Origin: Lingula anatina
Lineage: Eukaryota > Animalia > Brachiopoda
NCBI GenBank assembly: GCA_051362555.1
Contig: CM120644.1
Span: 9,742,954 to 9,806,953, forward strand
Direction of reading: 5' to 3'
DNA length: 64,000 nt
Shown here: positions 275-46,100 of the stretch, piece by piece
Numbering within the stretch: the stretch's first letter is position 1
Layout: each line of letters opens with the position of its first letter
Notes under the pieces: generated by a model
Told to the model about the DNA's origin: nothing
The model's database searches: none
The model's input: only the letters and a program-made list of their open reading frames with translations
Translations under genes and position numbers: made by a program

Positions 275-3200
275 TGGTCTTTGAGATGGACGTCCACATT
301 TCGTATAAATCGAAGAAGTCCGCATATGGTAGACCTGTAGCCATTCCTCATTGGTTTTGAAACTTCGTCATAAACAGCCTGATCGAGCAATTCTTTCTGC
401 AAAACATTATTTTTTGAAACTCGGTATATTTATTTCGTCAGTACAATATACAGATGGTGAAACAGATTTTTCAATGCCACTTGTGCTGCAATGGTAAAAT
501 AATAAATCGTTTCTGAAAAGAGGAAACGTCATACGTCATTAATAAAATACTATTTTCTTGACATAATTTATGACTAATTTTGTCACACAGATATAAACCG
601 AACTCTACAAAAAACTGTTCAAATTACATTGAAATTATTCTTTATATAATTATTTTATTGAAATAAAGTGCTATATAAAATATTGAAATTAAAGATTTTG
701 TCTTCGTGCCAAGATTTTAGAGGTTCTGTGCATGCCACGTGCGCTGTAAGTGCGTCCTCAACAAATCAAAGATGGAAGATGAGATAAACTGTGATTCGTT
801 ATGTGCCTGGGGCACTTTTGCGTATACATTCAGGTTGTTGCACAATAATATAGAGTAATGCCCTACACGAAAATACATTAAATTTCACGACTGATTTGAT
901 TACATTTCAAGCTCAGTACAGTTTGAAAGATGATAAAAATGCTGGGGATTTTACAGTACAGAGCTTATAGGACATGTGTCGTTTTTGGCCAGTTTTTGGT
1001 AGGCAGTGATATTGGTCTGAAAGAAGAGTTTAAGATCGCCCCATTGATTTTCTCCCTTTCCCTTCCTCCAATCTCTCCGGATGAGTTTACGTAGATTAAT
1101 TAGTCTAATATTACGTGTACGCCAGTAACACACTGGTTATCCGCATTCAAGTATATGCGGAAGCACATTCAAGTATATGTGGAAGCACATTCAAGTATAT
1201 GCAGAAGCAAAATCATCAATAATAATCCAAAAAGACCTACCCAATGTGCTACTGTGTTAAACACGGATACCGTCAACCCATCCAGTGTCAACGTTACGGA
1301 ATGTGGCTGCTGTCTCCAACTGCAATATATTCAGTGGATTAACATGGATTTTATACAAATCAAATATCACATAGATAACGGCTGTTCTTATTGTAAACAA
1401 AAAAATTATTATTAAACTGCTCGCATTAAGTATACTGCTGATATTCTATTCTCACATTTTCTTCAATCCATCTACGTCTACTACGTCTAAGACATTAAAA
1501 GAAATGCTTACATTATTTTGTTTAAGATAAAAAAAAATACAATCTGGAACGTAAAGGACATGAGATTTATGTAACACGAAGCAAAGTACTACTTGTTTGC
1601 ATTTCAACATTGTGTCAAAGCTAATTCTTTCATTTAATGTATAAAATGATTATATGTAGTATCCCTCTATTTTACCTTTCTTTCACTTCCTTCTCGTCCC
1701 CCAGCACACCAAGAAAACGATACCTCATATCCACATTCCAAAAGAACGGGTGCCTGTTAATGAGAGATATATCAATATTTACTGCACATTTACCACGTAA
1801 CTCCCTGTACCTAAATTCTTACCAGTGAAACATTTTTTTTTTAAATATTCCCTTGTCAGTATGCGTTTAAGTGCTTTCATGTATTTGGACAACATTACAC
1901 ACATCCAACTAACATACATTAATAGTTATTATTTTGTCACTTGTTGATAGTCAAAACGACCGTTAACTTTTTAAGTGCGTGTCTTTAATCTAATAGTGTG
2001 CAAGTAGCTGTAGTTGCTTTAAATTTATTATTATTTTTTTATTTATTATTTTTATTTATTTATTTATTTATTTATTATTATTTTTATTTTTTATTTTTTA
2101 TTTTTTTGCCAAATAAATCTATTCAAAAAGGGGAAAAGACACCCTGAGCTTCAGAGCTAACTTGACACTAACCTTTTCACTGTAGCCTATCTCCATCGTG
2201 TCAAGTAACCTCTGACCAGATTCGATTGCCTCCGCCGCCCGCCAATCAAATTTAAAAGCCCGCACTCAATGACTCATTAAACGATCTAGCCAATGAACGC
2301 GAACGAGTCAAAGCGCGCTTTGTTCAAATCCAGACCAATCAAAGATAAGGCTGAATATCAGGGACTTGCCGTAACCTGTGGGCAGCACGCAAATAACATC
2401 GTCTCTCAGTAGATAATGATGCAGGGCCTCAAACTGCTAGACCCTATGGTTTCAATTCCGATTTACTCATATTTTGCAAAGAATCAAGAGATAACTTAAC
2501 ACATTCTTTTTCGTAGTCACTCGCCTTGCTTTCTTTGTGTACGGTAATACACTCGGAACTACTCGGATGTCTCCGCACTCGACAATAACTATGTTGTTAG
2601 TATGGAGCTTGCGGAATCAGCCGAGGGTTGCCGATTGACGGTCAACCAATCAGCGTTTTCACCAAACTTTGGTGAAAAATTTTGAAACATGGATTTGATT
2701 GGCTTATATAAACTAGGTCAAACTATTTTCGTCAGAGGTTACTTGACACGATGGAGATAGGCTACAGTGAAAAGGTTAGTGTCAAGTTAGCTCTGAAGCT
2801 CAGGGTGGGAAAAGACGAATCAAAAAGAAAACTTACGCCAGTGCCTCCTCAATGGTCGGCCTTAGCTCAGGGTCTGGCTGCAGCATCCAGTCCACTAAAT
2901 GTTTTCCAACGATGTCGTCCAAGGCTGAAAGGTCATGTTTTCCGTCTTGAACGTTCTTGTTACACAGAAACACGTCAGCCTCGCCATTTGGCATAAATGG
3001 GTGTATGCCACCTGTTAGTGTGTAGTATACTAACATACCGGCCACCTGCCAGGGAAACAGAAATAAAACGCTTTTTAAATCAAAACTTAACACACATACT
3101 TGTATATCTAAGCTATACATAATGTACGGTTCGTCAATAACTATACCCCGGTACAAAATAGTTATAATAATCACAAATTTCCATGAACATATAAAGGAAA

Positions 3201-6200
3201 TTAAAAAAAAAACATGCTGATGACTGCTTATAAATCTACTTCAATAATACACGTGTACGTGTATCTATGACACCTTCATTAGGATAGTTGTTGACAAGTT
3301 TATGTAGTTAACTGTAATTTTACCTGAATATCGGCATTTTTCTTGTATTTGACTTTCCCAGTGGCGCTATCCAGTATCTCTTTTGCCACCCAGTGGTATG
3401 TCCCTGAAGATACACCAAACATAACAACCACAAGCAGAAATGTAAATACATGTTCCAGCACGGCCTTTTAAAATGCTATAAATTGGTAATGGGTAATATA
3501 AATCAGAGCTTTTAATAGTACGTCTACTATATCCTTGTGGCCAAAATATAATATCATGAGACAGGCAGACAGACAGAGAGACAGACAGATATACACAAGA
3601 TGGTAGAAAAACTGTAATATACCTTTAGCAGTAGTGTAGAAAGTACTCTGGTTATCCGGGAGGACCACACTAATGCCAAAATCCGATAATTTTGCTCGAT
3701 TGCTGATATCTATAAGAACGTTGTGGGGCTGAAAGTGGCGTATATTACTTAATGTTACTACATTTGTATAATCCATAATTATAAGACGGATTTATACTTT
3801 TCTGCATACTAACCATCAGTTACTTACATGAAAATGTTTGCACACAAGTTTTATTTGCAAGTAAAAAATAAGTGTCAACATTTTAAGAATAAAATTTGGA
3901 AAAGCCCAAATGATATTATTACGATAAAACTGTTGACAGGAGCAAAAATAAGTACCCCCAGTATACCAGGATTCCCAAAATTCACTGACTGCTGAATGTG
4001 GGTATCTACCTTGATATCCATGTGAATTACGTTGTGCCCAGTGTGTAAGGTTCTGAGGCTTTCCAAGATTTGCCCTACGAGCTCTCGGGAGATGTTGGTC
4101 TGGTTTTGTTTGTACTCATCTGTAGATATGAATTCATTGAGAGTAAACTCTCCAAGCTCAAGAATCAGGTACAGAAACTCGTCATCCATGGCAATATCAA
4201 GATATCGGATGATATTTGGGGAATCCAATGTAGTTAACAAGCCTTTCTCGTTCTTGAAGTTCTGTGACATGGACCTGGGGAATCTTTTTACGGCGACCTC
4301 TCTGCCATCATGCCGAATACCCAGAAACACCTCAGTTTTGTTGCCGCTGAAAAGAAAATATAATAATCTAATCTGAGGAATCTGAAACTTTAACCACGAT
4401 TGATGACTCTTGCCCCAGATAAAAGAACAAATGAAAGACGTGTGGTAAAATTTTAACCTTGGCCATTTACACTAGTACGTCGGTATTAAATTACTTTGAC
4501 AGAAAACATACTTCAATTTACAACATCAGCAAAGCTAAACACTAAAGCACACAACACACAAACTTTATCTAAGTATTTCATTTCAATTTTACTGATTTTC
4601 GCATGTTATAGTCAACGGGAACGCGTCTATAAACAACTAAAATATTAAAAACCACCACCAGAACCCGACTGGGAGCATAAACGTTTTTAAAATGATACCA
4701 CAATCAAACCAAAAGATTATACAAAACTGAATAAATACAGCACACCTCTCTATACTTACGATCCAATTTTAAATCTGTCGATCTTTGTGCTGAAACATAC
4801 GTTGTTCACTTCCTTCAAGTTCCCGTCGCTGACCTGCAGAAGTTCTTCAAAGAAAGGCCTCCATCTGGCACTGACAGGTGTCCAGTTTGAGGAATACTTT
4901 AGGGCAATCTGTTCCTTCAGGTAGATTAGACTACTGGACGGTACTATAGAATCACAGAGCAGTCCGTCGTCTGCTAAATCGTTTCGACCAATTTGTAAGA
5001 TCTGGCGTGAAACAGGAATGTCTGCGTCTGCCTCTATTTGATTTTTCAAAAACGCCACGTTGTTATTTGGTGAAACTTGATAGTCTCTCAAAGTACCGGT
5101 AGGGAGCAGCACTGATACTCTCCAGGGTTGACTGGTAAGAATGATGTCCATTTCCTCTTCCATTTTGGAGGTCAGGTATTCGGCTAACATCTTATCGTCA
5201 CTAAGAACGTTACCATTGAAACTAAGGTGTTGTTCAAAAAGATGAATGTCTGTATCCACCGCCAGAATCTGCTTAAGTTCGCCGACGACATTGCTTGCCA
5301 ACAAAGAGTATTTATATATTTGACCGCCACGTGCTACAGAAACCTTTACTGACCAGCCAACAGTCACAACTGACCCTTCTTGGAGACCATAATCCTTCAA
5401 CGTTTTGTCGCTCCCGAGTTGTGTCCCTTCGTAAATGAAAATAACTGCCTTCAGAAAGTTCTTCGCCAATGCGTTCACTGTATCCGTTGGGAACACTTTA
5501 ACCGATATTTGGGTGTTCTGTCCTATTATCTTTAACACGACTTGGAATGAAACAGACACCTTTATTTTACGCAGACGATATAGAAGAGTCTTCTTGTCGG
5601 ATTCGACCAATTCTTGGAGTGCAGCTCTTCCTTCCCACTGGGCTTCTATCAGAAGCATATCCTTGCGTGCTGCTTGTGATTTAAGATCAATCATATTCAA
5701 AAAATCTCCGACGGTAAGAAGGGGATCCCAAGATTGTTCTTCAAGGCTGCCATCGGCAAATTGAACAAGAACACTATGTGAGGCATAGGTGACCGTAAAC
5801 TCTTGGTCTGTTCCAAAGTAAATGCCATAACCCGTGAAAGATATGTCTTCGTCAAGACTGTCTGATTCGCCCGGCATAAGACCATGATATACATTCACGT
5901 AATAAAGGGGTAGATTTACAAGTTCAATGACTTTGGTCTTTATGACTCGAATTTTGTCCGTGCTCCTAACGGACATGCGCAGACTCTGTCCGTCTGGCAG
6001 ATGAACAGATATAAATTGAATAGGGTCTGAACTATCCGTTTCAGTTTGTGCAACCATGGGTGTCGCTTCGGGATCTGATTTACATACGCACCTCTGAAAG
6101 GAAAATAAATATGCAGTATTATGCATTTATTGATGAATACAAATAAGTCCAAATTTAAGAAAACTAATAGCATATTAACTTCAACTCAATATATTTCTTT

Positions 6201-6975
6201 CCTTAGATAGTTCTTTTTTTAACCCGTACTGCTTCACTTATTAATTGTACTTCTTACTGATTTACTGTAAGATGATCAATATCATTTGATCGATGCATTT
6301 TTTGATATCATTTAAATATCATTACGTTTCCTTAACAAAAAAGTAGTTCATGTTAGCAATTGGAAATAGAATATGTCTGTTATTTTAATTGTATGCCACG
6401 ACTGTGGATAGAGAGGATACTGGATAGAAAAAAAACAACAAAAAACAGAAAAAAATTACCGAGAAACAGTTTTCGCAACAATCAGAAAACCAATCTCTAC
6501 ATCCCTCTCGACATTCCTCGCAGTCGTCGTAGTCCTTGCAACAACAACACAGACAGCAATCTTCATTGTCCTGACAGCACAGATACACACAGACTCCAAC
6601 ACAGCACAGGATCAGCAGCCCTGCAACACTGGCTGACACGGCAGTGGCTATGATCCAACCTTGAACTCCAGGAGTGGGCGTGGCACCGGTGGTTGTGGGC
6701 GTGGTCGCGGTAGAAGTAGCCGTGGTTTGAGTGGCGTTACCGATACTCTTGTTGTCGGTCGTGCCTGATTGGTTTATACTGGATATAGGCGAGGTCTCTG
6801 TGAAAGTATGTGTGGTCTCGGTGGTGTTGCCGCTATTATGTCTCTGGGAGACCGATCCGATAGAGGGCGTTGTTGCCGTCACGATTCTCGTGTAATCGCT
6901 ATCAGAGGATGCAAAGTGGGGTGTTAAAAATGCCAAAAAGGCTGTAATTGTACACAAAACCTTGCCCGTATCCAT
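275..6975 (-). CDS. Type-I transmembrane IRE1/RNase L-family kinase-ribonuclease with tandem ubiquitin-like domains (3' end incomplete)
   Basis: Nine phase-compatible exons: 6975-6460, 6093-4760, 4346-4010, 3728-3623, 3403-3324, 3045-2837, 1753-1676, 1319-1241, 396-275 (about 953 codons, no stop). Signal peptide MDTGKVLCTITAFLAFLTPHFASS, then a T/S-rich stretch, TM segment WIIATAVSASVAGLLILCCVGVCVYLCC, and ubiquitin-fold repeats (e.g. FIYEGTQLGSDKTLKDYGLQEGS; IPVSRQILQIGRNDLADD). Kinase motifs IGSGNKTEVFLG, VAVK, HMDIKPHNVLI, DFG, GTYHWVAKE, DIQVAG..GG.HPF, RPT..E.LAHPFFW. KEN motif YRSTICGLLRFIRNVDVH. Confidence 0.85.
1145..1209. repeat. Three copies of a 22-bp tandem unit
   Basis: cattcaagtatatg(c/t)(g/a)gaagca repeated three times within an intron. 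Confidence 0.8.
2140..2807. mobile_element. MITE / non-autonomous DNA transposon in an intron
   Basis: Perfect ~77-bp terminal inverted repeats (caccctgagcttcagagctaacttgacac...ctctgac at 2140-2216; reverse complement at 2731-2807). Flanked by direct repeat ggaaaaga (8 bp), or gggaaaagac (10 bp) if the TIR starts at 2141. Confidence 0.9.
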
Positions 6976-7416
6976 TGGCTGAGATTACTCCTGAAAAAGG
7001 TTTTTAAAAAATTATATTTTCGGGCTAATTTTTTCAAGCAAAATTTAAGGGTTATCATGTGCTAATTACATGGATATACTTTTGCCTTTAATTAGATTCG
7101 AAAGAGATGTTTTATAGTATTATCATGAAGATCTCATGCACTTGTGTGGCCAGTTACAAAAATTATATAACTAACTTCGCAAAACTCGGACCAATGATTT
7201 TTGTTATTATAAATAATGACTTAAAACCGAATGTAACACTTTAAAATACGTGCATGTGAAGATGACATTAATATTCTTGGCTAAGGAAGCGCCCAGAAAC
7301 AACACATCCTCCCAGTTGCGACTGGAGAACTCACTCACTGATAACAAATTTTAAAACAATAAATGAAGGCAAAACAAAAAAAAATAATATTTGGCTTTTG
7401 AAGATATGGTCATAAA

Positions 7417-7631: not shown

Positions 7632-10413
7632 CATAGACAACACCCTTAGTGATAAACGATAAAAGGAGTGAGAGAGTAAGTTCCCCGGTCTTTTTAGGTG
7701 TTAAGGTAAGTAGTGCTTTCAGCTGGGAAGAACACGTTTTATATATATGTAATTCAAAAAGGTAAATCAAAGACTTAAGTATTTAAAACTAATGAAAAGA
7801 GCAGAGGTTTCTGATAATAAACTCATACACTTTTTCGTGTTAGTGATCAGATCTACGCTGGAGTACACCTGCCAAGTTTGGCACCCTGGTCTTACGAGAC
7901 AACAAACTGACAAGATTGAAATGACCAGAAAAGTGCATAAAAATGATAAACTCAGACAATAAGATGAGGCACTAACATTTTCTAAAAGTGTAATTCACTT
8001 GCTGGCTGAATGTTTGACCTATCAAACCATTTCACCTCAATATGACCAAATAAAAGACCATAAATTACACCATCTACACTGAGACAAATACGTTAGCCAT
8101 GTATTGTGCTTCGAACTCAAAAATATACTGTACCAAAACTGAGAAGTATCAGACCTTCAAAAACATCCATCCCATGCACACTGAATTCTGAACTCACTTT
8201 AAGTATGTTTTAATTGATATTAAACTTAATGTAGGCCCCCTATTTTTAAATATCCTCAAAGGACCAAATGTTTCATTTCAACCGCAGTGCACTTTTAATT
8301 TAACAGTCTTAACAGTTTTTTTATTATCATTTAGTGAATTTAAGAATTTATATTTTTGTACAATCCGACTATTTTACTTGCAAATAACATTATAACTCTG
8401 AACTTGCCGTGATTGCATTATGCAGTTTTAAATAAGTGACTCCCTATTTAGGGAGGCAAGTAGTGCCCGTGAGTGAGGGATTAACTGTACGAGAAGACAG
8501 ATGTGTTGTCAAAAGCTATATAAAAGGACATTTTAATTGAATCTGTGGACTTCAAATTATTGTCTGAAAATACCTCTTGGACTATTATTTTGAAATCACA
8601 CGCATGAGCCTATACGATATTATCCTAATTTTTATAAACACACTTGAACTATTACTCTTTTAGATAAATATATAGGCTATATACACTGGTAGGCCTATAG
8701 TAAGGTGAATTATTTATGCACCAATTTCATATCAAATGAAACCTCGTTATATATGTTAGCAAAACAATATTCTAAGGACTTTTAAAGATGCATGCTGATC
8801 TAGGCCTATATGTCAGTGATTTCACAATGAATGAATGGATGTTGTTGAAAACCCCATATCTTACAAATTCACCTCGTGTGACCTCCGGCTAGCGGTACCC
8901 GCCACCTTTGCTTACCTGTACCATACCAATACTGTAATGTTGCGGCCAAACGCCTAAGATTTCCTCGTTTCTGCAAGATGTTATAAGAGGCCTACAATAG
9001 CGCCTGTCTATACAGGGTACGTTACTAGTATGAGCTCAAAAAATGACAAAAAGAATCTAGATGTACCCCACACCCACCGCCAGGGTGTTTGGTTTCTCTT
9101 TAAGACTTCAGCTATTGTCGCACGCGTCACAATGGTGGCAAATATCGATTCTATCCAACGCTACATATTCACACAATACCCTGACCTAGTTTGCAGTTAA
9201 GTGATGTCAGGCAGCCAGGCTGAACGCCTTGCTTTGTATACTTATATAGGCCGATACTTGATATATGGGTCGAAAGGCACACGACCATATTCAACATTTT
9301 ACCGGCTTTTACAAAATTCGCAAGTAACATTTGTGTATGTGTAGGCTTACAAATGTACGTTAAAAGCATAGGGGGCCTATAGGCCTATAATTTTGAATTC
9401 CTATTTCTTAAAATGCCTCGTTTAATGTCGCCTGCAATTTAAATTTATGATAACATTAAATTTGTTTTATTTTGGCTATTAGGCGAATAACTAGTATTAA
9501 TATCCATTTATTTTATTTTTTACAGAACTCCTAGCATATAGGCCTACTGTAGCTTCCTCGTGTAGGCCTAAGTTGTTCAATAGGCCTATTAAAATTTTTT
9601 GCAGCAGTCCAAGCCCTACTAGTAGGCCCTATATAGCCCAAGCCACAATTTTTTTTAGATAAATTTTGTATAAATATTTTGTATAAATAAATCATGTTAA
9701 ACTAAATTTGGGGACATATTCAGCTTTATCCAAAAATTGTCAAATGTAAAAACTTTAGCTCTAATATAATAGCCTACCGGGTAGCCTAGCTATATTATTT
9801 GAAAATAGGCCCCTAAATAGATCAATCGATAAACAAAACATGCGATTTAAACAAAATACATAAATGAAACTTTAAATGACAAATCGATAGCACTTTTACT
9901 ATGGCTTTATTACAAACTGTAAATATAGACAAGACCTACCAGATTGTAGGCATATAGCACCCTCCCCTCCCCCCCCCCCCCCCCCGCCCCCGTTATTAAC
10001 ACTATATAGTGAAAGGCCTTACAGAAGACATATATTCAATAAAATGTTAAATGCCAACCAATTTTTAGCATTTATTTTTTTAATGTGTTTGCAATATTTT
10101 ATTTAAAGCAACAAAAAACCAAAGTAGGAAAGAACATTTCAACAGGAAGTCGTATTACGACAATCAAATGTGGGTACTAGCAAAGCATGCCTTGTTGTTG
10201 ATTTCCCGTAATGTTGCAGTCCAATCTCTTTAATAAGCCATGCAGTGGTAAGCTTTTTAGGAAAATGTAGGATTAAATGTTCTAGTGTATGACATAGATT
10301 TGAGATTTTTATTTGTAACTATCAGAAAACTAAAATCAAAGAGATACTGTAAGATGCAGATGTACGTGTTTGACTTCCTCTCAGCCGTTTCGTCTCTCAT
10401 AGGAGGTCTGACT

Positions 10414-10883
10414 GGGTGTGACTGAAATGCGCAATACACTGCAATACAGCGCAACACAGCGCAATACACTTGATAACACAAGTCCTGTTGCAAGTAAACA
10501 CAGGAAAGGGTAATCTCAAATAAAATAGGGTGATATAAAAGCAAAATATAGTACATAGTAATTAATATTGCTGATACAACTAGACAATTTTTTCATTGTT
10601 TGGTCAGCCGCCATGTTGGCGAGTAGCTCTTCTTGGCCAGTAATATATATCCAAGAAGAGCCACTCGCCAACATGGCTGCCAACCGGACAATATAAAAGT
10701 CTTGCTGATTTGTTAGGTTATATCAACAATATTACTTACCTAGTAATATAGGTTGTTTTTATATCACCCTACTTTGCTGGGAATGGTCATTTCTTTTGTG
10801 TAATTGCAATTGGATTTGATTTTTGAAGTGTATTGCGCTGTGTTGCGCTGTATTGCAGTGTATTGCGCATTTCAGTCACACCG
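10414..10883. mobile_element. Foldback MITE with 9-bp TSD (Mutator-like)
   Basis: TIRs ggtgtgactgaaatgcgcaatacactgcaatacagcgcaacacagcgcaatacactt and its reverse complement. Imperfect palindrome over the whole length (centre ccatgttggcgagt..ctcttcttgg / ccaagaagag..actcgccaacatgg). TSD ggtctgact at 10405-10413 and 10884-10892. Confidence 0.9.
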
Positions 10884-11194
10884 GGTCTGACTGTCTCTGG
10901 TCGCAGATTAAGTTATTTAGCAGAGTTATTACCCTAAGGTGAATCAGTGCTTCGTCTGTAGCTTATATATTAAGCCTCGAGTATCAGCATGTACTTCAAC
11001 GTAACTCTTTTTGACTGTCGAATATCGAGCACATTTATTGTGGACAGTGCTCTTTTAAATGGAACCGAAATACCTATAAATTTGATATATTTTAACAGTT
11101 AGTTTTCTCTCTTGATTTAAAGAATTTGATTGCTCTCCCTCTGATCAGTGGATCAATTTTACAAAATTTCTGATGATGAACTTTTTCTCCCCAG

Positions 11195-19700: not shown

Positions 19701-22700
19701 ATTTCAAGAATTTTGACCAAAATGACCTTTTCTTTATTTTAATTAATTTTTTTTTTGTAGGAAATTTATGGCACATTATGGTAACTCCAAAATTATAACA
19801 TTTAGTCCCTTATATCTCCAAAACTGGCAGAGATAGGTCCATAGTTACTATTGAACTTCAATAGGAAGTCATACACTGGCAATCTAAATGTGACCTTAAA
19901 ATTGACCTTTGACCTACTTTTCACCATGAACTGAACTTTGCAAATTTTGCTTCCTTTTTATCTCCAAAACTGGCAGAGATAGGTCCATAGTTTCTATTGA
20001 ACTTGAATAGGAAGTCATATACTGGCAATCTAAATGTGACCTTAAAATTGACCTTTGACCTACTTTTCACCATGAACTGAACTTTGCAAATTTTGCTTCC
20101 CTTTTATCTCCAAAACTGGCAGAGATAGGTCCATAGTTACTATTGAACTTGAATAGGAAGTCATATACTGGCAATCTAAATGTGACCTTAAAATTGACCT
20201 TTGACCTACTTTTTACCATGAACTGAACTTTGCAAATTTTGCTTCCCTTTTATCTCCAAAGTTACGCTGTATCAAAAAGTCATATTGGTGGTGAAAGCAA
20301 AATGTGCAGTACGGTAATGGATAATAAATTTTGAACTCCGGAAAAATAAAACATAAGGCTTGGCAAAGCAGACAACTTGTGGTCAAAAATGACATTTCAT
20401 CAAATTTGAACATCTGGAACTTCAGAGCACCTCCCATTTCAAGAATTTTGACCAAAATGACCTTTTCTTTATTTTAATTAATTTTTTCTGTAGGAAATAT
20501 ATGGCACATTATGGTAACTCCAAAATTATAACATTTAGTCCCTTATATCTCCAAAACTGGCAGAGATACGTCCATAGTTACTATTGAAGTTGAATAGGAA
20601 GACATATACTGGCAATCTAAATGTGACCTTAAAATTGACCTTTGACCTACTTTTCACCATGAACTGAACTTTGCAAATTTTGCTTCCCTTTTATCTCCAA
20701 AACTGGCAGAGATAGGCCCATAGTCTCTATTGAACTTGAACAGGAAGTCATATACTGGCAATCTACATGTGACCTTAAAATTGACCTTTGACCTACTTTT
20801 CACCATGAACTGAACTTTGCATAGTTTGCTTCCCCTTTATCTCCAAAACTGGCAGAGATAGGTCCATAGTTACTATTGAACGTGAATAGGAAGTCATATA
20901 CTGGCAATCTAAGTGTGACCTTGAAATTGACCTTTGACCTACTTATTATCATGAACTGAACTCTGCTAATTTCTTTCTCTTTTAACTCCAAACCTGGCAG
21001 AGATAGGCCCATAGTTACTATTGAAGTTGAATAGGAAGTCATATACTGGCAATTTACTGTGACCTTGGAATTGACCTTTGACCTACCTTGCGATGAACTT
21101 AACTTTGATTGTACCATTTTTAGTAATATATATATTTTTTGCATATTTTGAAAATTCTTGTTGATTGCATTTTTACAGCTTGTCAAGCACAAGACTGGTG
21201 GCTGTGTTCCTTATTTTGTATATGTGGGGGTCTATATGAATGCGCTTGCTCCAGCTGGTGGTACAATATTCGGAGGCGGTATCGCCTCTCTGATCCTCTA
21301 GTTATGACATTTATTTTTATGATGAAAGCTAGTGTCTTAATGTGTAAATGACTGTTTTAGTGTGAAGAAGAGAAAATTGTTTTGGGAAGAGTGTGTAGAT
21401 TTACTGGATACAGCAGCAGTCACTGAGGCTAAGGACAGGTAATCTGTTGACTATTCCGTCACCAGCAAAATCTGGTAAAGATAATAATGTATTCAAGACA
21501 ATCATTTGTCAAACATGCAACCTACTATATTGATGTTTGAAGTGTTGACTGAAAATAAAATGACACAAATTACAGCATTTTTGATGTTTCAAGCATGAAA
21601 AAGAATGAAAAATATTTAGAAAACATAGTAAAATTAATAGGATGAAAGTGTAAAAGACAGGTTTTCTGCCTGCCAGGAAGTCTAAATTTTGAATTCTGCT
21701 CACAGCAGTTGGAAATAATGTTACGAGCTGGATTTAATTACTCAGCTAGTGTTTTTTCGTTTTTCCAGTGGAAAGGAGAACACTCGGGCAGTGGAGAAGT
21801 TGAACCAACTTTTGAAAGAAAGATGTAGACTTCCTTGGTTCAAGTTTGATATCAAGACTGTCCTGGAATGTCTACAGGTCAGTTGTAGGAGTGCCCTCTT
21901 GTAGCAGAAACTTTTACTGAAATGTTGAAGTGTTATAATAAAAATATAAGAACAAGAATTTTGTAGTAGTATGTATTAGAATAAATTTTTTATAAATCTT
22001 TAACTAAAGCTAACGTGGGACATGTAAACTTGTATAACAAAAATCATGTAATAAATTATTTAAGAGTACATCATTTTATGACTTTTTTTTATTTTTCAGC
22101 TTCTAGGATTGGAGTTACTTAAAAAGGAAATATGAGTTAAATGCCATGGCTTTATACAATATAGTCCATGAGCCAAAGGCCAAAAAATCCAATTTGGCTG
22201 CACCCCCCGTCAGGCAAAGGTTTTATGATTGATTCTTGTAGTTTAGAACCTGAATTTTTCATTTCTGCTTGTTTCCGGCTTGAAAAAGTGTCCGTTTGTA
22301 CTGGAAACAGGCCAAATCCAAGATGGCCGCCAGTAAATTCATGTGTCAACTGTAAATACAAAAATTGATTTAAAAGTTACTTAACAACTTAATATTATCA
22401 AAATTTGCACTGATCACAAGTACTTTGGCCTTCTTTGATTTTTCAGGCACTTTACATTTTTCAAGATGGCGACTGAATCCAGATGGCGGCCATTTTCTTT
22501 ACTTTTTGTGAAAAAATACAAATACCTAAATTTGAAATTTTTTTTATTAACCAAAAATTAGGAATATTTTACATGTTTTGATGTATTTGAATAAGTTGAA
22601 GTCTATATTTTTAATTTTTACCAGTTAATTTATCACAAAATTGTACATTTGAACACAGATGGCTCTAATCCAAGATGGCCACCACATAAAATGGGCTTTT

Positions 22701-28700: not shown

Positions 28701-31700
28701 AATTTCAAATAAAATAGATATGCGTAAATCTAATATTTCTCCTCATAATTATTACCTTTTGCAATGAAATTAGTCGTTTTTTAATAAAGTTTTTTTATTT
28801 AGACAGTAGGCTGACTTGGAGCGCATTTGCGCACTGTAGTGTGTTAGCTGTGTTGAGAGGAGATTGCATTGGTGCTTGTCTTGTTTGACCCATTTTTGGT
28901 TGGTTTGGTTTGTTTTTCAGCGAGTCCGATATGAGTCGGATGTCCATTTTGTAAACCATAGCCAGGCTATATATATATATTAGCATATCTTGGTTAAATA
29001 TATTTAATACTAAATGTGCTCATCTTGCCCTAAAGTCTACTTTAGTGAAACTCATAACTATTATCAAGTTATTGTTTTTTTTTTCTGTAAACATAGTGTG
29101 TTTTACCATCATTTTTTTCCATAATTTTCTACAGGTAATAAAGTGATTCAGGTAAATGAAGAAGGCATATGTGGGCGACTACTGCTGAGTGCCTGGATGC
29201 ACAAACTCCCGTGGGAAATGTAATCGGGAGGGGCAAGCAATAAGCTTTTACCAATTCCCCAAAGATGTCAGACGTAAACACAACTGGCTGTGCCACATAC
29301 CTGTAGATAAGGATTTTATGTCTATAACATCCACAAGGATATGTTCTGTGCATTTTGAAGGAGGTATATATATAATGCAACAATGAATGTTATTATAAAA
29401 TGCATATAAAAGTAGAATTGAGAAAAATGTGTGTGTGTGTGAGTCTGCATGGGTTCCCATGCCTAGATTGATACATCTGGATCAGTGTAACTCCCTGGGG
29501 AGTCTCACTAAATTGCTATCAACTAACCAGCTTAAATGACTGTCATACATACCAAATCAACTAGGGGGTAAAGAAATTACCCTCTATCGGCTATACTAGG
29601 TGTGACAGACATTAAAGCAATTTATTTGATAGCAATATAGTGAGATTCCCCAGGGAGTTACACTGATCCAAGTGGATCAATCTAGGCATGAGATAGGGAA
29701 GATGATCAATCCAAATATCTGTGGGAATGGTTCCTTAAAGCAATAATAACTCTTCCTTTGAGATTCAAAATTCCGCATGAAATACATTGTAAACAACGCA
29801 TGGAAATATATTCTATTGTATTTTACCACTAAAACGGCCGTTATTGTAGTAAAACTAAAATCTGTGCTTGTCAATAGGGCTTTCGATGCTTTCATCAAGG
29901 CATTTGTTGCTAATGACGTAATGGTGTCACGCGGATTTTCGCGTTCATTCGAGACCAAAATAACATATGGCGCCAAACGCATTAATGCGGACGCAGACAT
30001 AAGTTGTGAGTTTTTGTACAGTGCGTCGGATAACGAAAAGCCCAGAATGGCAAACATTGTGGATATTAATGTATTTTTAACAAAAAGACGAATATATCTC
30101 ATGAATCTTATATAGTGTTGTATTTGTCTGCTTTTCCCGCGGTTTTAAGTAGGTCAACAGTGACTATGCGATGTCAGAGAGAGCTCCGTCAGTTAAAATC
30201 TCTTAAGAGATTTTAACAAAAAACCGTACGTTTAGGAAAAAAACCCTGGATTAACTTTGAATGCAGGAATGGGGTCGCTGACCATTGGTAAGTATGGGAA
30301 AATTGCCGTTTACTCCAGGAAAATCCAATTTTTGGCCAAAATGAAGAGTTATTGTACCACCAGCGTTAGCGCTGGCGGTACACATGGTTTCGGTCTCGTC
30401 CGGATCGTTCCGCCGGCTCCGCCGGCTCCGCCGGTTCCGCCGGCTCCGCCGGCTCCGCCGGCTCCGCCGGACGGCTACCGTTACCGCTTCTCCTCCTAGA
30501 CGGTAAGGCCCCCCATACCCATCTCATGGATTTAGGTCACCTATAATCTCAACTCGTTCCACGTAAAATTTGGGCTTTGTCGGTATTGGGGTCTGGGTGT
30601 GGCACTCATTGCAATGCACCCTTGTCTAAAAATGGCAAAATTAAATGCTAATTATCTACCCTACGGAAGGAGTTATGGGAAAAATTTCTATAGACGGCTT
30701 TCCAAAAGTCATATGTGTAGATTTCAAATATACCCTTGGATTTGACCTTTGACCTTTACTTCAAGGTCAAATGGGCCAAAATTTTCAAAAAAATGAAATT
30801 TTTTACGAAAAAAAATTTTTTTGCCCTGTTATTCAGACACCACACAGACTTAACCAATAATATTATTGGAAAGTGTTACCCTTCAGGTCATCTTTCATCT
30901 CCATGAATTTGGGGTCAATCGGTGCATTTTCACGGGAGTAGCGGCCATAAGATACCGAAACTGAAAACTGTCTCTAATTCGGGAACCGTTAATGCTAGAG
31001 ACCCATTCTTTTTTGCATTTTGTAGAGCATGTAAAGCCCAACACTGGAGGTGGTCTCGGTTTTTTTGTATTCCATACGGTTTTCGAGTTACGCTGTATCA
31101 AAAAGTACATATTGGTGGTAAAAGCAAAATGTGCAGTACGGTAATGGATAATAAATTTTGAACTCTGGAAAAATAAAACATTAGGCTTGGCAAAGCAGAC
31201 AACTTGTGTTCAAAAATGACATTATTTCATCAAATTTGAACTTCTGAAACTTCAGAGCACCTCTTATTTCAAGAATTTTGACCAAAATGACATTTTCTTT
31301 ATTTTAATTAATTTTTTCTGTACGAAATTTAAGGCACATTATGGTAACTCCAAAATTATAACATTTAGTCCCTTATATCTCCAAAACTGGCAGAGATAGG
31401 TCTATAGTTACTATTGAAGTTGAATAGGAAGTCATATACTGGCAATCTATATGTGACCTTAAAATTGACCTTTGACCTACTTTTCACCATGAACTGAACT
31501 TTGCAAATTTTTCTTCCCTTTTATCTCCAAAACTGGCAGAGATAGGTCCATAGTTACTATTGAACTTGAATAGGAAGTCATATACTGGCAATCTATATGT
31601 GACCTTAAAATTGACCTTTGACCTACTTTTCACCATGAACTGAACTTTGCAAATTTTTCTTCCATTTTATCGCCAAAACTGGCAGAGATAGGTCCATAGT

Positions 31701-34700
31701 TACTATTGAACTTGAATAGGAAGTCATATACTGGCAATCTATATGTGACCTTAAAATTGACCTTTGACCTACTTTTCACCATGAACTGAACTTTGCAAAT
31801 TTTTCTTCCCTTTTATCTCCAAAACTGTCAGAGATAGGTCCATAGTTACTATTGAACTTGAATAGGAAGTCATATACTGGCAATCTAAATGTGACCTTAA
31901 AATTGACCTTTGACCTACTTTTCACCATGAACTGAACTTTGCAAATTTTGCTTTCCTTTTATCTCCAAAACTGGCTGAGATAGGTCTGTAGTTACTATTG
32001 AACTTGAATAGGAAGTCATATACTGGCAATCTAAATGTGACCTTAAAATTGACCTTTGACCTACTTTTCACCATGAACTGAACTTTGCAAATTTTGCTTC
32101 CCTTTTATCTCCAAAACTGGCAGAGATAGGTCCATAGTTACTATTGAACTTGAATAGGAAGTCATATACTGGCAATCTAAATGTGACCTTAAAATTGACC
32201 TTTGACCTACTTTTCACCATGAACTGAACTTTGCATGTAAAGCCCAATACTGGAGGTGGTCTCGGTTTTTTTGTATTCCATACGGTTTTCGAGTTACGCT
32301 GTATCAAAAAGTACATATTGGTGGTAAAAGCAAAATGTGCAGTACGGTAATGGATAATAAATTTTGAACTCTGGAAAAATAAAACATAAGGCTTGGCAAA
32401 GCAGACAACTTGTGTTCAAAAATGACATTATTTCATCAAACTTGAACTTCTGAAACTTCAGAGCACCTCCTATTTCAAGAATTTTGACCAAAATGACATT
32501 TTCTTTATTTTAATTAATTTTTTCTGTTCGAAATTTAAGGCACATTATGGTAACTCCAAAATTATAACATTTAGTCCCTTATATCTCCAAAACTGGCAGA
32601 GATAGGTCCATAGTTACTATTGAACTTGAATAGGAAGTAATATACTGGCAATATAAATGTGACCTTAAAATTGACCTTTGACCTACTTTTCACCATGAAC
32701 TGAACTTTGCAAATTTTGCTTTCCTTTTATCTCCAAAACTGGCAGAGATAGGTCCATAGTTACTATTGAACTTGAATAGGAAGTCATATACTGGCAATAT
32801 AAATGTGACCTTAAAATTGACCTTTGACCTACTTTTCACCATGAACTGAACATTGCAAATTTTGCTTCCCTTTTATCTCCAAAACTGGCAGAGATAGGTC
32901 CGTAGTTTCTATTGGACTTGAATAGGAAGTCATATACTGGCAATCTTACTGTGACCTTGAAATTGACCTTTGACCTACTTTTCACCATGAACTGAACTTT
33001 GCAAATTTTGGTTTCCTTTTATCTCCAAAACTGGCTGAGATAGGTCCGTAGTTACTATTGGACTTGAATAGGAAGTCATATACTGGCAATCTATATGTGA
33101 CCTTCAAATTGACCTTTGACCTACTTATAATCATGAACTGAACTCTGCTAATTTCTTTCTCTTTTAACTCCAAACCTGGCAGAGATAGGTCCATAGTTAC
33201 TATTGAAGTTGAATAGGAAGTCATATACTGGCAATTTACTGCGACCTTGAAATTGACCTTTGACCTACCTTACGATGAACTTAACTTTGATTGTACCATT
33301 TTAAGTTATATATATTTTTTGCGTATTTTGAAAATTCTTGTTGATTGCATTTTTATAGCTTGTCAAGCATAAGACTGGTGGCTGTGTCCCTTATTTTGTG
33401 TATGTGGGGGTCTATACGAATGCGCTTGCTCCAGCTGGTGGTACAATATTCGGAGGCGGTATCGCCTCTCTGATCCTCTAGTTATGACTTTAATTATATG
33501 ACATTCTTATTTATAATTATATTTACTCATTTACAGGTAGAAAGAATGATGACCCAGCTCATCCAAGCTACTCACCAACTATTTTCCCCAATAGTTCCTC
33601 CAAACCCCGCACAACAAATAACTCTTTATCTGCTAATGGGAGCTACAACCAAAAGCCAAAACAAATTTTCAGAAAAAGATCATCAACTGGCAGGCAAGCT
33701 GCTGGCAGGCCAAATGTTGCAAGACGTTTAGTTGACTGTCTGAATGAAGCAGGAGATCATGATTATTATACAACAAATAAGCAACAAAATTTAACAAAAA
33801 TTCAACAATTGGAAAAAGAGGTAACTGAATTGAAAGAGCAAATATCTGATTTAAAAGGAAAATTTCTTCGTTTAGAAAATATAAAAGATGATGACAGAAA
33901 ATTTCAGTTTTGGACTAATCTGCCAAATTTTTTAGTTTTTTCTTCATTATACAATTACTTAAAAACAAGAACAGATTTTATTTGCCTTTATTAGACATAT
34001 TGTTCTGACCAGAATTACCCTTTTCTTCTTGTACATTTTAGTATCGTTACTTAAAATTCTTACTAAAATATACTTTAATACAAATGTTTTGGTCTAAGAT
34101 TCACGGAACAGCTGACATAGGGCATCATAAAGATAAATGGGTATACGACTTTCCTGACATATCAATTCCCTCTCAGTGTCTCACTCAAGGCTCTCTTGCT
34201 GGAAGTTGGGTATATTTGGCCTGGCTATGGTTTACAAAATGGACATCCGACTCATATCGGACTCACCGAAAAACAAACCAAACCAAAGTGACTTTAAAAA
34301 TGGGTCAAACAAGACAAGCAAGAACGCAATCTCCTCTCAACACATCTAACACACTGCAGTGCGCAAATGCGCTTCAAGTCAGCCTATTGTTTAAATAAAA
34401 AAAAATAATAATTAAAAACAACTAATTTCATTGCAAAAAGTTATAATCATGAGGAGAAATATTAGATTTACACATATCTATTTTATTTGAAATTTAATAA
34501 TCATTTTTCACTTACCTGTACGGCTTTTTATTTGCACGTCTATAGATTTGATATGGGAAAAAATACCGGAACTCCTGTTTTCGCGCAAAGGATTATGGTC
34601 TATATGAATAAGGCAAATTCAGAGAGCTTTTATGTGCGAATATTAAAGGCATTCCTTGTGTGTGTTTGTTTGTGTATAAGTTGATACTTGACTTTTCAAA

Positions 34701-43199: not shown

Positions 43200-46100
43200 A
43201 TGTCAGGAAAAGTTGCACTTATTACTGGGGCAAGTTCGTAAGTATATGAAAATCTCATGATGTAAATTGCAATTATATTTCAGTTAAGAAATGATGAAAG
43301 CATTATTTTTTGTTGTTGTTGCTAGAGTAGAGCATTTATTATAACGCGTATTGGTACACAGCACTTGCAGTATTACTGGTAGTAAAGAGGAAATTGCTAT
43401 TTTGCATGACTGACCGAAAATATATTTATACAAGCATGATTCTGGCAGTACCAATGCAGCTGCATTCGTAGTAACTTTGCATATGGATTTTTCATTGGCG
43501 TTTGAATGCATTGCCAGGCAAAATAATAGTTTTAATACACACGTGCAGAACCCCTGTGCAATGTATACTGGTACTTATTGTATGGTATTTCACATTAGAT
43601 TTTGATTTATAAAACAATAATTTGCCAACTTTCAGTCTTTTTTCGACCAGCCCCACTCAACCCTTTCAATATTGAGCACTATTGTATCTGGTACATTAAT
43701 GGTAACAATTACCAAGCAAATTTTGTGATTTCAGCTTAAAGTAACATAAGCAAATGATTAATTTGACATGCAAGTAAAATTTATTCTTAATTATCTTGTA
43801 CATGCAATAGTAGTTTTTTAAGGCATGTCATGTAGTTAATCATATAAGTTCACACACTCCAGAGTGATAGATCAAACCAGATACGTCTGTTGACATAAGA
43901 TATCTGTACATGTACTTAAACATAAAGATTTAAGATAATATATTTACAGTGGTATAGGCCTTGCACTGGCAGAGAGAGTGCTGACTGCCCACCCAGGGAT
44001 ACATCTCTGTCTGGCCTGCAGGAACCAGAGGCGGGGCGAAGCAGCGGTGGCCACCTTGAAGTTGTCCCACCCTGGGGCCGAGATAGACCTGGTCCTGGTG
44101 GATGTCAGCCGAGTGAGCTCTGTCCAGCAGGCAGTGGTGGAGATTAAGATGAGGTGGGTTGCTAGGTTAGTCGGACAAAGTAGTACATATGCTGTGTAAC
44201 TTATACTAGTGCTAGTATGATGTACTCAAACAATGTACAGGGACTTGTATCCATTCAAACAAGAGCTTAACTTGTAACGATTCTTTTGTCTATCTTACCA
44301 TCCAATATTTCATCTGCTTGCATTCAGATTTTGTCAGGGAATGAGATTGTGACAAGTATGACAATCTGTCACCCCCTCTGGTGTGCTATTTTGTCAGATC
44401 CCCCCCCCCCTTGCCAGCCCCTCCCTTAGCTAATGAAACTGTTCTACACAAGAGCTTAACTTACATTTAATGCCACATTATTATTATTATTATATTGTTG
44501 TTGTTGTTGTAATCTAACAAGTTCTAAACTCACACTTATAACCATTTTCATTACCACAAGTGACATTATTATTATTGTTGATGTTGTTGTAAAAGAATAA
44601 TTAAATACGAAAACTAAAGGCATTTATTATTCTAACTTTTATAGTTCATAACATAACATGTACTGTAACAAGATGTCCCTGGTGTATGAACAGCAATAAA
44701 CTTATTATTGTTATATTTATTTTGTGTGCTACAATAATTTTTTTTCTTCAGATATCAAAGACTGGACTATCTCTTTCTAAATGCTGGTGTTATGGGAGAA
44801 ACGAGGGTAAACTGGACAAACTTCTGGAAAGGGCTGTTTTCTGAGTGAGTTCTGAATTTTAGCACACAGTGGCCTTTCTTTATGACATGAATGGTTTCTC
44901 TTACATTTTTAGAAACCTATTTTTAGGGCAACCCTTCTTTTACACCATAACTATTGGCTGAAGGAGTTACAGCAACACCAAAAAGAATTTTAATTCAGTC
45001 ATGTTAAAACTTAATATTTTTATCATGCATAAACTGACGTGCTTACATGGTAATGTGGAAGTGTTTTGTACATGAAACCGAAAGAGATAACACAGTTCAA
45101 TTTTGTAAAACTAAATATTTATTGCACAAATTTAGCAATAGCAAATTCAATAACAGATTCCGGCAAATTATATAAAATTGTGCTAGATGAGATAGAAAAA
45201 AATGCTGCCTGCTGATTAGGTTTTGAAAGTGAAAAAATATGTAGCTCATTTCTGTTTACGTGCCTCAAATATACATAGACATATATATACCAAATTGCTA
45301 TTAAAGCTAACGATATCTGTCCAAATTTAAAAGCATTGGGTGTGACCGCCATATCCACAAGACAGTTAATGAAGATGTCTGTGCAGAGAAAATATTTTAC
45401 TTTATTTTTTTCAGAAATGTCTTCCACATGTTCCACACTGGTATAGGGCTGCTAGAGCATAAAGATCAAGTGACTGAGGAGGGGCTTCAAATGGTCTTTG
45501 CAACTAATATATTTGGGCACTTTGTGATGGTAGGTTCTATTATTATACTTATTTTACATATTCCTGAGGCTATGATCGAGAAAAGCTACAACTGATTGCC
45601 TTACACTAGCCAAAGAAATGGAGTCTACATTTTTAAAATAATTGTTAGATTAATTTTTATGTACAGACACAGATGTGTCTGTACATATAGCCATCATCTG
45701 TGTCTGTCGTCGCCGTCGTCGCCGTGCACTTTTACCGATAACACGATAAGTGGAAAACCATTTTACCTTTTGACTTGAAACTTGCAGAACTGATGAATAT
45801 TCATAATACGCAGGTCAAGTTCGAAAATCAGCATGATCGGGTCACTTTTAGGGAATTTATGCTGTTTTTTCACTTTTTTCAGCATATATGCAGCACCGAT
45901 AACACGATAAGTGGAAAACCATTTTATCTTTTGACTTGAAACTTACAGAACTGATGAATATTCATACTACGCAGGTCAAGTTCGAAAATCAGCATGATCG
46001 GGTCACTTTTAGGGTATTTATGCTGTTTTTTCACTTTTTTCAGCATATATGCAGCACCGATAACACGATAAGTGGAAAACCATTTTACCTTTTGACTTGA

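Follow-up and report, generated by a model that had tools for sequence, protein, structure and literature searches.

The window analysed here is a 64,000-nt stretch of Lingula anatina DNA (GCA_051362555.1, contig CM120644.1; all coordinates are positions in this window), and it holds on its minus strand a spliced, transcribed Lingula gene. Nine coding exons join into 953 stop-free codons with GT-AG borders at eight of eight introns, in line with an earlier note on this DNA, made from the letters alone, which had proposed nine exons splicing in frame. The other five frames carry 31–53 stops, 0/2000 shuffles were stop-free, and GC content is 45% in exons and 33% in introns. The exons, with the evidence that places them, are as follows.

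8916–8945, minus strand: 3′ end of an upstream non-coding exon (donor GTAAGC at 8915; 5′ end unmapped)
6460–6975, minus strand: coding exon 1, aa 1–172 (RNA depth in runs X1, X2, X4 and X7)
4760–6093, minus strand: coding exon 2, aa 173–617, with the entire ubiquitin-like (UBL) array, the pre-kinase helix and the start of the Gly-loop (RNA depth, joint 4760/4346)
4010–4346, minus strand: exon 3, kinase N-lobe with VAVK Lys, helix-C Glu and HMD catalytic loop (non-RD) (Pkinase 59 bits; read evidence)
3623–3728, minus strand: exon 4, PHN, DFG and activation segment (Pfam Pkinase; seven loose read ends at 4010 run into its first bases)
3324–3403, minus strand: exon 5, GTxxW-AKE and DIQ (open frame and match to RefSeq relatives)
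2837–3045, minus strand: exon 6, kinase C-lobe (Pfam Pkinase and match to RefSeq relatives)
1676–1753, minus strand: exon 7, HPFFW and start of KEN (open frame and match to RefSeq relatives)
1241–1319, minus strand: exon 8, KEN (RefSeq relative matched at 96%)
275–396, minus strand: exon 9, KEN catalytic R-N-x3-H (RNVDVH) (Ribonuc_2-5A 20.9 bits; RNase L alignment), ending at a GT donor

Exon 8 was placed at 1319–1241, among many in-frame candidates, because RefSeq relatives match there; these matches also speak against a strong acceptor at 512 and further bridges that keep the frame, all of which were rejected. Position 275, previously taken as the gene end, turned out to be a splice donor, and a tenth exon carries the last ~55 KEN residues; no match to it was found within the window and we place it beyond the window edge. 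At the other end, the upstream exon follows from loose read ends at ~6990 (run X7), of which one motif matches 8920–8939 with two mismatches (0 matches expected by chance), giving an intron 1925 nt long whose acceptor lies at 6991; the second of the two upstream loose-end motifs has no match within the window. RefSeq LOC106151416 (XP_013380124.1) from Lingula anatina has the same exon content and is identical at 934 of 953 residues (98%), and since some of the 19 substitutions are common to the window copy and LOC106158774, the window copy is another allele or close copy. Six neighbouring ORFs were scanned and showed no trace of immune genes.

Read mapping covered 3900–7200, that is exons 1–3, with exons 5–9 outside the mapped span. 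RNA reads there are confined to exons and cross the UBL-to-kinase joint 4760/4346, one of the two junctions at which the earlier note had proposed to look, and transcripts occur in all four RNA runs (X1, X2, X4, X7; unchallenged or of unstated treatment) at a low level of about 0.4–5 reads per kb per million. The TM-to-UBL joint 6460/6093 is absent from the read-joint listing, in which a repeat beside the donor was skipped and one joint row there dropped; the intron bins between exons 1 and 2 have zero depth in four of four runs, and in X1 and X7 both flanking exons are covered. Within exons 1 and 2, the protein divides as follows.

6904–6975, minus strand: signal peptide (hydropathy-based prediction)
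6661–6903, minus strand: Thr/Ser-rich stalk, the ectodomain (from composition)
~6574–6654, minus strand: TM helix (hydropathy-based prediction)
6460–6603, minus strand: Cys/acidic cluster (from sequence)
5782–6018, minus strand: UBL U1, aa 198–276 (AlphaFold beta-beta-alpha-beta-beta, pLDDT 66–88; iterated profile match)
5554–5781, minus strand: half unit U2, aa 277–352 (two strands plus one helix, after which the chain is modelled at low confidence; model residues 121–160 with pLDDT <50)
5350–5550, minus strand: UBL U3, head-to-tail with U4 and U5, no di-Gly end
5125–5349, minus strand: UBL U4, head-to-tail with U3 and U5, no di-Gly end
4906–5124, minus strand: UBL U5, head-to-tail with U3 and U4, no di-Gly end
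4795–4905, minus strand: pre-kinase W-x3-S-x2-W segment, common to animal non-IRE1 kinase-KEN proteins

The signal peptide, Thr/Ser-rich ectodomain, single TM helix and Cys cluster described earlier were all recovered; hydropathy gives a signal-like N-terminus and one strong hydrophobic segment (Kyte-Doolittle peak 2.5), that is a single predicted TM helix before kinase-KEN as in IRE1. The predicted ectodomain counts 81 aa, 44% of them Thr/Ser, with four N-glycosylation sequons; no Pfam family scores above cut-off in it, and no folded IRE1-type luminal sensor was found there. Eighteen Cys lie within the 54 residues following the hydrophobic segment, and this cluster crosses the 6460/6093 joint.

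Between TM helix and kinase, in the predicted cytosolic part, lies the UBL array of 375 aa. Pfam returns ubiquitin on exon 2 (71 bits), Pkinase on exons 3, 4 and 6 and Ribonuc_2-5A on exon 9, as the domain calls of the earlier note would have it, and the full-length relative P0122 clears all three Pfam cut-offs. By AlphaFold model and profiles, the "about five" UBLs of that note come down to four whole units (U1, U3, U4, U5), each with a beta-grasp fold in the model (Foldseek E 7e-22 to tetra-ubiquitin), the fifth, U2, being a half unit that has no match by iterated profile and is kept in the alignment of both Lingula subfamilies. U3–U5 match polyubiquitin (phmmer E 1e-24) and are modelled at pLDDT mostly 79–93; a single-sequence AlphaFold model of exon 2 (pLDDT 35) was discarded. 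U1 gives a weak Raf-RBD-like match (PF02196, 23.5 bits, below the cut-off of 25.7) which is a lead only and was not seen in subfamily B. Structural comparison puts chicken OASL di-UBL (VIA Z 15.6), ISG15 (15.2) and ubiquitin (15.0) among the best matches, tied within 1 Z and in rows that mostly test U5, with FAT10, midnolin and Rad23/Dsk2 UBLs also among the matches. Gly-Gly is absent from the unit ends in seven of seven family proteins checked, which sets the array apart from polyubiquitin and conjugatable precursors; VTVGWS and LTSQP link the units where ubiquitin has LRLRGG, and the ubiquitin Ile44 position is retained in one of three aligned units (U3). The proposal that the UBLs act as deubiquitinase (DUB) bait by being cleaved is weakened by these ends and by the Ile44 count.

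By sequence, both kinase and KEN retain their catalytic residues: K, E, H-x-D-x-K-x-x-N and DFG of the kinase and R, R, N and H of KEN are kept in four of four Lingula tree rows. Taken by itself, KEN matches RNase L at 44.5 bits and IRE1 at 20, and its catalytic His falls on that of RNase L (RNVDVH with RNLGEH); the whole kinase-KEN module compared with structures places IRE1 above RNase L (127 vs 95 bits; in a second comparison 290 vs 228). In the pre-kinase segment the non-IRE1 rows carry W in 25/36 and S in 32/36; alone or as a 10-row profile it retrieved neither RNase L nor IRE1 chains from the PDB, which gives no support for homology with the linker between ankyrin repeats and kinase in RNase L, and a WKPQS fragment is the sole pre-kinase trace in the KEN/RNase L structural-database comparison. 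The DIQ of exon 5 is replaced by Phe in 20/20 IRE1-like rows.

A careful tree was built from 56 of 96 rows, no RNase L sequence being among them. Lingula A and B cluster together (100/97) and fall within a 30-row non-IRE1 group of Lingula, teleost, coral, mollusc and amphioxus proteins (99/97), and 20 IRE1-like rows, a group drawn after the first tree and confirmed by name in two of 20 rows, separate at 100/99; this is the outcome of the kinase-KEN phylogeny suggested earlier, subject to an AU test in which a split uniting Lingula with IRE1 is not rejected (p 0.14). Kinase and KEN in one chain (Pfam, P0122), W..S..W with DIQ, and the 99/97 group place the protein, with the AU caveat, in this animal non-IRE1 radiation, in which its closest sequences (36–48% identity) are also found. 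N-termini of its relatives there (ankyrin, TPR, GT4-conflict, HEPN_DZIP3) are typical of conflict proteins, and a strong hydrophobic segment occurs in 1/63 non-IRE1 non-Lingula tree rows, 0/116 teleost-type matches and 5/7 Lingula models. With that caveat, the sequence evidence partly supports placing the catalytic module nearer RNase L than IRE1 within the family; of the "RNA-cleaving stress or immune effector" proposed before, this placement favours the immune over the ER-stress reading.

UBL and kinase occur in one protein in 9 of the 296 proteins compared, all from Lingula, which agrees with the lineage restriction put forward earlier. There are at least six Lingula loci or copies, varying in UBL number and N-termini, and in a divergent subfamily this UBL-kinase module is preceded by a multipass membrane region or, as modelled in LOC106171780, by LRRs. 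The UBL units stay in register across subfamilies despite only about 17–34% unit identity; between paralogs U1–U2 diverge faster than U4–U5, and the window copy differs from the closest RefSeq copy at 0/224 positions in U2, U4 and U5. Relative to P0002 the ectodomain changes fastest (24/46 identical) and the kinase slowest (251/260). The paralog P0005/P0123 retains TM, kinase and KEN with almost no array left, which means that an array is not required. In four RefSeq gene models a TM exon is spliced to the UBL exon, and the RefSeq copy P0004 is modelled without TM. As for novelty, no description of gene or architecture was found in literature from which subscription papers were mostly absent, and the clade architectures of PMC10400998 may include a Lingula protein; the claim of an uncharacterised architecture holds to that extent, qualified by the existing RefSeq model (named uncharacterized) and by a KEN-ubiquitin fusion in one table row of PMC3710099.

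From the sequence we favour, with about even confidence, an RNase L-like defence nuclease that is tethered to the membrane, would be switched on by clustering and would be regulated through the UBL array. The nuclease site of IRE1 and of RNase L is assembled only on dimerisation; if the Lingula site likewise needs a dimer, local concentration may be the switch, with clustering bringing two kinase-KEN modules together for RNA cutting. A glycosylated stalk and TM helix would direct the protein into the secretory pathway or to the plasma membrane; palmitoylation of the Cys cluster is likely. The uncleavable array, positioned where RNase L has ankyrin repeats, is likely a cytosolic regulator that holds the enzyme apart or binds a clustering partner. 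The output would be broad RNA decay and translation arrest in the stressed or infected cell, not XBP1-type splicing. The kept catalytic residues, the RNase L-leaning KEN, the 99/97 group outside IRE1, the swapped conflict-type N-termini of the radiation, the varied Lingula copies with units in register, the fast ectodomain and slow kinase, and the rarity of membrane anchors elsewhere in the radiation all argue for this. So do the signalling of engineered IRE1 chimeras with foreign sensor domains (bioRxiv 10.1101/2025.04.27.650769) and, if that protein belongs to the radiation, the poly(I:C) induction of a Nematostella RNase L homologue (PMC8476169). On the other side are the AU result, the higher whole-module score on IRE1 structures, a tree without RNase L, the unlisted 6460/6093 joint, a paralog nearly without array, neighbouring ORFs without immune genes, and a stalk without a folded ligand-binding domain. 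More tentatively, brachiopods may possess a family of receptor kinase-ribonucleases, with swappable outer modules on a conserved UBL array and RNase L-type nuclease, in which a surface pattern receptor would cut RNA without a second messenger and an IRE1-like layout would have been reached independently from the RNase L side. Outer modules in such a family would comprise a mucin stalk with TM, a multipass membrane domain and possibly a signal-peptide LRR ectodomain.

We consider it unlikely that the protein is instead a sensor-less IRE1-type transducer of ER or lipid stress, in the manner of Arabidopsis IRE1C, and that its TM helix and Cys cluster would sense membrane state and trigger regulated mRNA decay at the ER. 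The SP-TM-kinase-KEN order, apparently active kinase, whole-module scores and AU p 0.14 are consistent with it, as is the activation by lipid saturation of IRE1 lacking its luminal domain, which performs RIDD (PMC6788458); the tree, DIQ in place of Phe and the KEN scores speak against it, as do nearest relatives without TM and a turnover of copies and N-termini unlike that of a housekeeping sensor. Equally doubtful is an integrated decoy, in which the array would bait pathogen proteins with affinity for ubiquitin, ISG15-like or OASL-like domains, and binding or proteolysis would trip the nuclease. The OASL, ISG15 and linear ubiquitin matches and the faster divergence of U1–U2 fit a decoy, and OASL UBLs are able to mimic K63 chains (PMC6019448); however, the tied matches indicate fold only, canonical DUB cleavage is unlikely at ends without di-Gly, Ile44 is kept only in U3, and 0/224 differences give no hint of rapid evolution on a bait surface. 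A receptor with a non-immune role in development or physiology, acting through its kinase or selective mRNA cleavage, would suit the intact kinase motifs and the transcripts in all four runs, but a lineage-restricted expansion inside a radiation rich in conflict-type domains makes it quite improbable. We give little credence, too, to the array as a built-in degron, of which FAT10 and midnolin are models, keeping the nuclease scarce until proteasome block lets it build up and self-activate: degron-type structural matches and low transcript level are compatible with this, but fold likeness shows no function, the array is internal, and the Ile44 patch is mostly lost. A soluble UBL-kinase-KEN protein, with the TM exon part of another gene, might be suggested by the unlisted joint and P0004 but is very improbable given the in-frame GT-AG joint, the silent intron, the skipped repeat and dropped row, the four RefSeq models and the Cys cluster spanning the joint.

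On the preferred reading, the Lingula protein would represent a third solution from the same kinase-KEN stock, a membrane anchor plus UBL array with swappable N-termini, in one lineage so far. It offers a compact case for how invertebrate kinase-RNases switch on, to which the yeast growth-arrest assay of PMC10400998 applies directly. Engineered IRE1 receptors may also have a natural counterpart in it.

The well-studied kinase-KEN triggers are two, luminal stress for IRE1 and 2-5A on ankyrin repeats for RNase L, and neither canonical sensor is present here, as first noted: no folded luminal sensor was found, and no ankyrin family on the full-length relative. With IRE1/ERN1 (PDB 4pl3, 2rio) the protein shares type I order (SP-ectodomain-TM-kinase-KEN) and catalytic residues; it differs in the 81-aa low-complexity stalk that replaces the luminal sensor, the 375-aa UBL array, a non-RD loop and a separate tree branch. 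OASL and ISG15 have head-to-tail ubiquitin folds as well (U4–U5 on chicken OASL di-UBL: Z 15.6, rmsd 5.6, 148 aligned), whereas the Lingula protein lacks an OAS domain and di-Gly, its 4.5 units being fused to a nuclease rather than to a pathway sensor. The animal non-IRE1 kinase-KEN proteins (teleost ANK-kinase-KEN, coral, amphioxus, mollusc), which are PK-RNase clades outside RNase L in PMC10400998, share pre-kinase W..S..W, DIQ and the 99/97 group; none was seen with UBLs, almost none with TM, and all are uncharacterised by database names. The authors of PMC10400998 argue for descent of RNase L from an older kinase-RNase that gained ankyrin repeats, and they leave the ancestor's own trigger an open question. 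RNase L itself (jawed vertebrates; PDB 4o1o, 4oau) resembles the Lingula protein in kinase-KEN, in KEN as best structural-database match and in a sensor position directly N-terminal of the kinase, but the Lingula protein is without ankyrin repeats, which makes 2-5A activation unlikely, and has a predicted membrane anchor, the UBL array in sensor position, and intact kinase motifs with DFG, where RNase L, a pseudokinase, carries Asp in place of the DFG Gly (PMC4718504). The protein is thus best read as neither IRE1 nor RNase L.

The gene near the window start lies on the minus strand, with nine coding exons forming an in-frame GT-AG chain:

6975-6460, minus strand, coding exon 1 (transmembrane, TM, exon)
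6093-4760, minus strand, coding exon 2 (ubiquitin-like, UBL, units)
4346-4010, minus strand, coding exon 3 (kinase N-lobe)
3728-3623, minus strand, coding exon 4
3403-3324, minus strand, coding exon 5
3045-2837, minus strand, coding exon 6
1753-1676, minus strand, coding exon 7
1319-1241, minus strand, coding exon 8
396-275, minus strand, coding exon 9

All introns (8/8) are GT-AG and the joined exons give 953 stop-free codons, with 31-53 stops in the remaining five frames and 0/2000 stop-free shuffles, bearing out the earlier note, which had nine exons joining in frame. The gene extent it proposed, 275..6975, stands for the exon chain but not for the end, position 275 being a splice donor and the KEN remainder lying outside the window; the KEN C-terminal portion, which RefSeq relatives do have, finds no match within the window. 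An upstream non-coding exon lies 5' of exon 1, with its donor at 8915. MITE-like inverted repeats occupy intron 6 (2140-2807; 89-nt arms, 94% complementary) and a site upstream of the gene (10406-10891; 182-nt arms). Elsewhere the window holds 146-bp and 161-bp satellite families at two sites each (19806-21107 and 31369-33289; 45734-46359 and 56356-56820), a copper type II monooxygenase exon scoring 40.8 bits (50634-51038, minus strand), and an open frame of 324 codons (34980-35954, plus strand) to which no Pfam family could be assigned with confidence.

Residues 1-24 of the protein are predicted to be signal-peptide-like and are followed by a stretch (residues 25-105; Thr/Ser 44%, four N-glycosylation sequons) in which no Pfam family was found, and then by a single hydrophobic segment. 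C-terminal to this segment, 18 of 54 residues are Cys, interspersed with acidic residues; we infer that these juxtamembrane cysteines are palmitoylated, metal binding being a possible alternative. The kinase motifs are intact (Lys, helix-C Glu, H-M-D-x-K-x-x-N and DFG), and the KEN residues R, R, N and H are kept, with the His aligned to that of RNase L (Asn in the mutant chain 4oau).

The nuclease site of IRE1 and RNase L arises in the dimer, and we therefore read the window protein as a putative latent nuclease switched by clustering. The dimer-formed site of RNase L is described in PMC4718504. The nuclease would be tethered at the membrane, with clustering as its on-switch and an uncleavable UBL array as cytosolic regulator in the position that ankyrin repeats occupy in RNase L; candidate triggers are stalk shedding, stalk cross-linking or a cytosolic UBL-binding partner. 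We give this membrane-held, clustering-activated nuclease with its regulating array about an even chance of being correct.

An IRE1-type stress transducer devoid of the sensor is an unlikely alternative, on which the kinase-KEN phylogeny bears. For a careful tree, 56 rows were chosen from P0278, a divergent Lingula protein, and the 95 rows that span the whole kinase-KEN (used in a quick tree); near-copies were removed by hand, and none of the rows is an RNase L sequence. The careful tree unites subfamily A (the window gene and close Lingula copies) and subfamily B (divergent Lingula copies) in a single clade (support 100/97), nested in a group of 30 rows (99/97) that also contains proteins of teleosts, molluscs, amphioxus and the coral Xenia; 20 IRE1-like rows separate at 100/99. 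Against this placement, a split that joins Lingula with IRE1 was not rejected by the AU test (p 0.14), the grouping was defined once the first tree had been seen, and the whole kinase-KEN module scores higher on IRE1 than on RNase L structures. KEN alone gives 44.5 bits for RNase L versus 20 for IRE1. A strong hydrophobic segment occurs in 5/7 Lingula models and 13/27 IRE1-like rows (many partial), in 1/63 rows that are neither, and in 0/116 non-Lingula matches from the best 120 of 204 in a kinase-KEN search; these counts suggest that the membrane anchor was acquired in the Lingula lineage. The Xenia model P0172 carries four hydrophobic segments near its N-terminus, possibly an independent anchor.

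That the UBL array acts as a decoy is improbable to the same degree. AlphaFold on a 16-row alignment (mean pLDDT 74.7, pTM 0.47) models units U1, U3, U4 and U5, numbered from the N-terminus, as ubiquitin-type folds, while for U2 it gives a pair of strands and one helix, then a low-confidence stretch; an iterated profile search recovers the same four. Thus the ubiquitin-fold array proposed earlier holds, but "about five" domains becomes four whole units plus a partial U2. Foldseek top matches of the array model are linear tetra-ubiquitin, and the VIA-align scores for chicken OASL di-UBL, ISG15 and ubiquitin lie no more than one Z unit apart, with U5 carrying most of the alignment. The position that we take to be equivalent to ubiquitin Ile44 is Ile in U3 only. 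A terminal Gly-Gly was found on none of the window protein's units.

The kinase-KEN search returned 204 matches. Among the best 120, four are Lingula, the only rows with a ubiquitin Pfam match; the other 116 are ray-finned fish by name, with one exception, mostly ANK-kinase-KEN (ankyrin repeats before the kinase) at 36-48% identity. In these fish proteins (P0006-P0121) the catalytic R-N-H is kept in the rows used in the tree; RNase L is reported lost in ray-finned fish in PMC10400998. A search run without an index over 1.84 billion representatives yielded 274 matches at E 1e-30 or better, the best 150 including P0184/P0271 (LOC106171780), a divergent Lingula protein with LRRs, a UBL array and half a kinase. 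Used as query, it returned two matches among 7988 scored candidates, both Lingula, the second locus being P0278 (LOC106175591), in which a multipass-membrane N-terminus (about three to five hydrophobic segments, no Pfam family) precedes the UBL array and a complete RD-type kinase-KEN. Subfamily-B UBL units align in register with those of subfamily A, and the N-termini of the two B models diverge at one common point. With many LRRs and a signal-like segment but no TM, and located on a 30.5-kb contig, the LRR model may be a mis-join; if real, P0184/P0271 may be a receptor. For the window protein itself a non-immune receptor is less likely than the two alternatives above, and an array serving as degron marginally less likely again. 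A further Lingula paralog retains TM, kinase and KEN, and of the UBLs only the last half unit.

A split-gene artefact is very improbable. Within 3900-7200, the interval to which RNA was mapped, reads occur in 4/4 runs (30, 8, 120 and 55 reads), with coverage confined to exons and the first mate on the plus strand in all three stranded runs, as expected for minus-strand RNA, although paralogs or other alleles may contribute. The UBL-to-kinase junction 4760/4346, singled out earlier for checking, is spliced in 9 spanning reads from 2/4 runs, and 7 loose read ends at 4010 extend into exon 4. The TM-to-UBL junction 6460/6093 is absent among the joints reported for 3900-7200 in the four runs, the mapping having skipped a repeat beside the donor; this intron has zero depth with both flanking exons covered in two runs, which indirectly supports the join, and four RefSeq models contain it, as predictions rather than independent proof. 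The gene is weakly expressed, at about 0.4-5 reads per kb per million.

Exon 2, searched against long proteins (7142 candidates), has 3 matches; two of them belong to Lingula anatina (98% and 82%). The closest model, XP_013380124.1 (LOC106151416, 1008 aa), shares 934/953 residues; the window gene's model is thus already public, under the name uncharacterized only. UBL matches occur in 17/296 collected proteins and UBL plus kinase in 9, every one Lingula, a distribution to be read as a lower bound because it draws on the best 150 of 274 matches and databases may hold few brachiopod relatives. The earlier interpretation is partly supported. The TM-UBL-kinase-KEN architecture was not found elsewhere in the searches made, nor described in the literature searched. 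A table row in PMC3710099 gives a KEN-ubiquitin fusion in one protein, and the text of PMC10400998 has 0 occurrences of "Lingula".

N-termini across the 35 representatives scanned include ankyrin, TPR (P0179), GT4-conflict and HEPN_DZIP3 (with kinase-KEN in P0218). In P0181, P0197 and P0207 a GT4-conflict glycosyltransferase is joined to the kinase and the KEN catalytic residues are gone. The clade P0213, P0221, P0226, P0240 and P0268 (four rows mollusc by name; several with ankyrin repeats) combines a pseudokinase (catalytic Asp to Asn, DFG lost) with a degenerate KEN (Arg to Tyr). The window protein is best placed as a member of this uncharacterised animal kinase-KEN radiation. It lacks the defining sensors of both IRE1 and RNase L, and on that measure belongs to neither.
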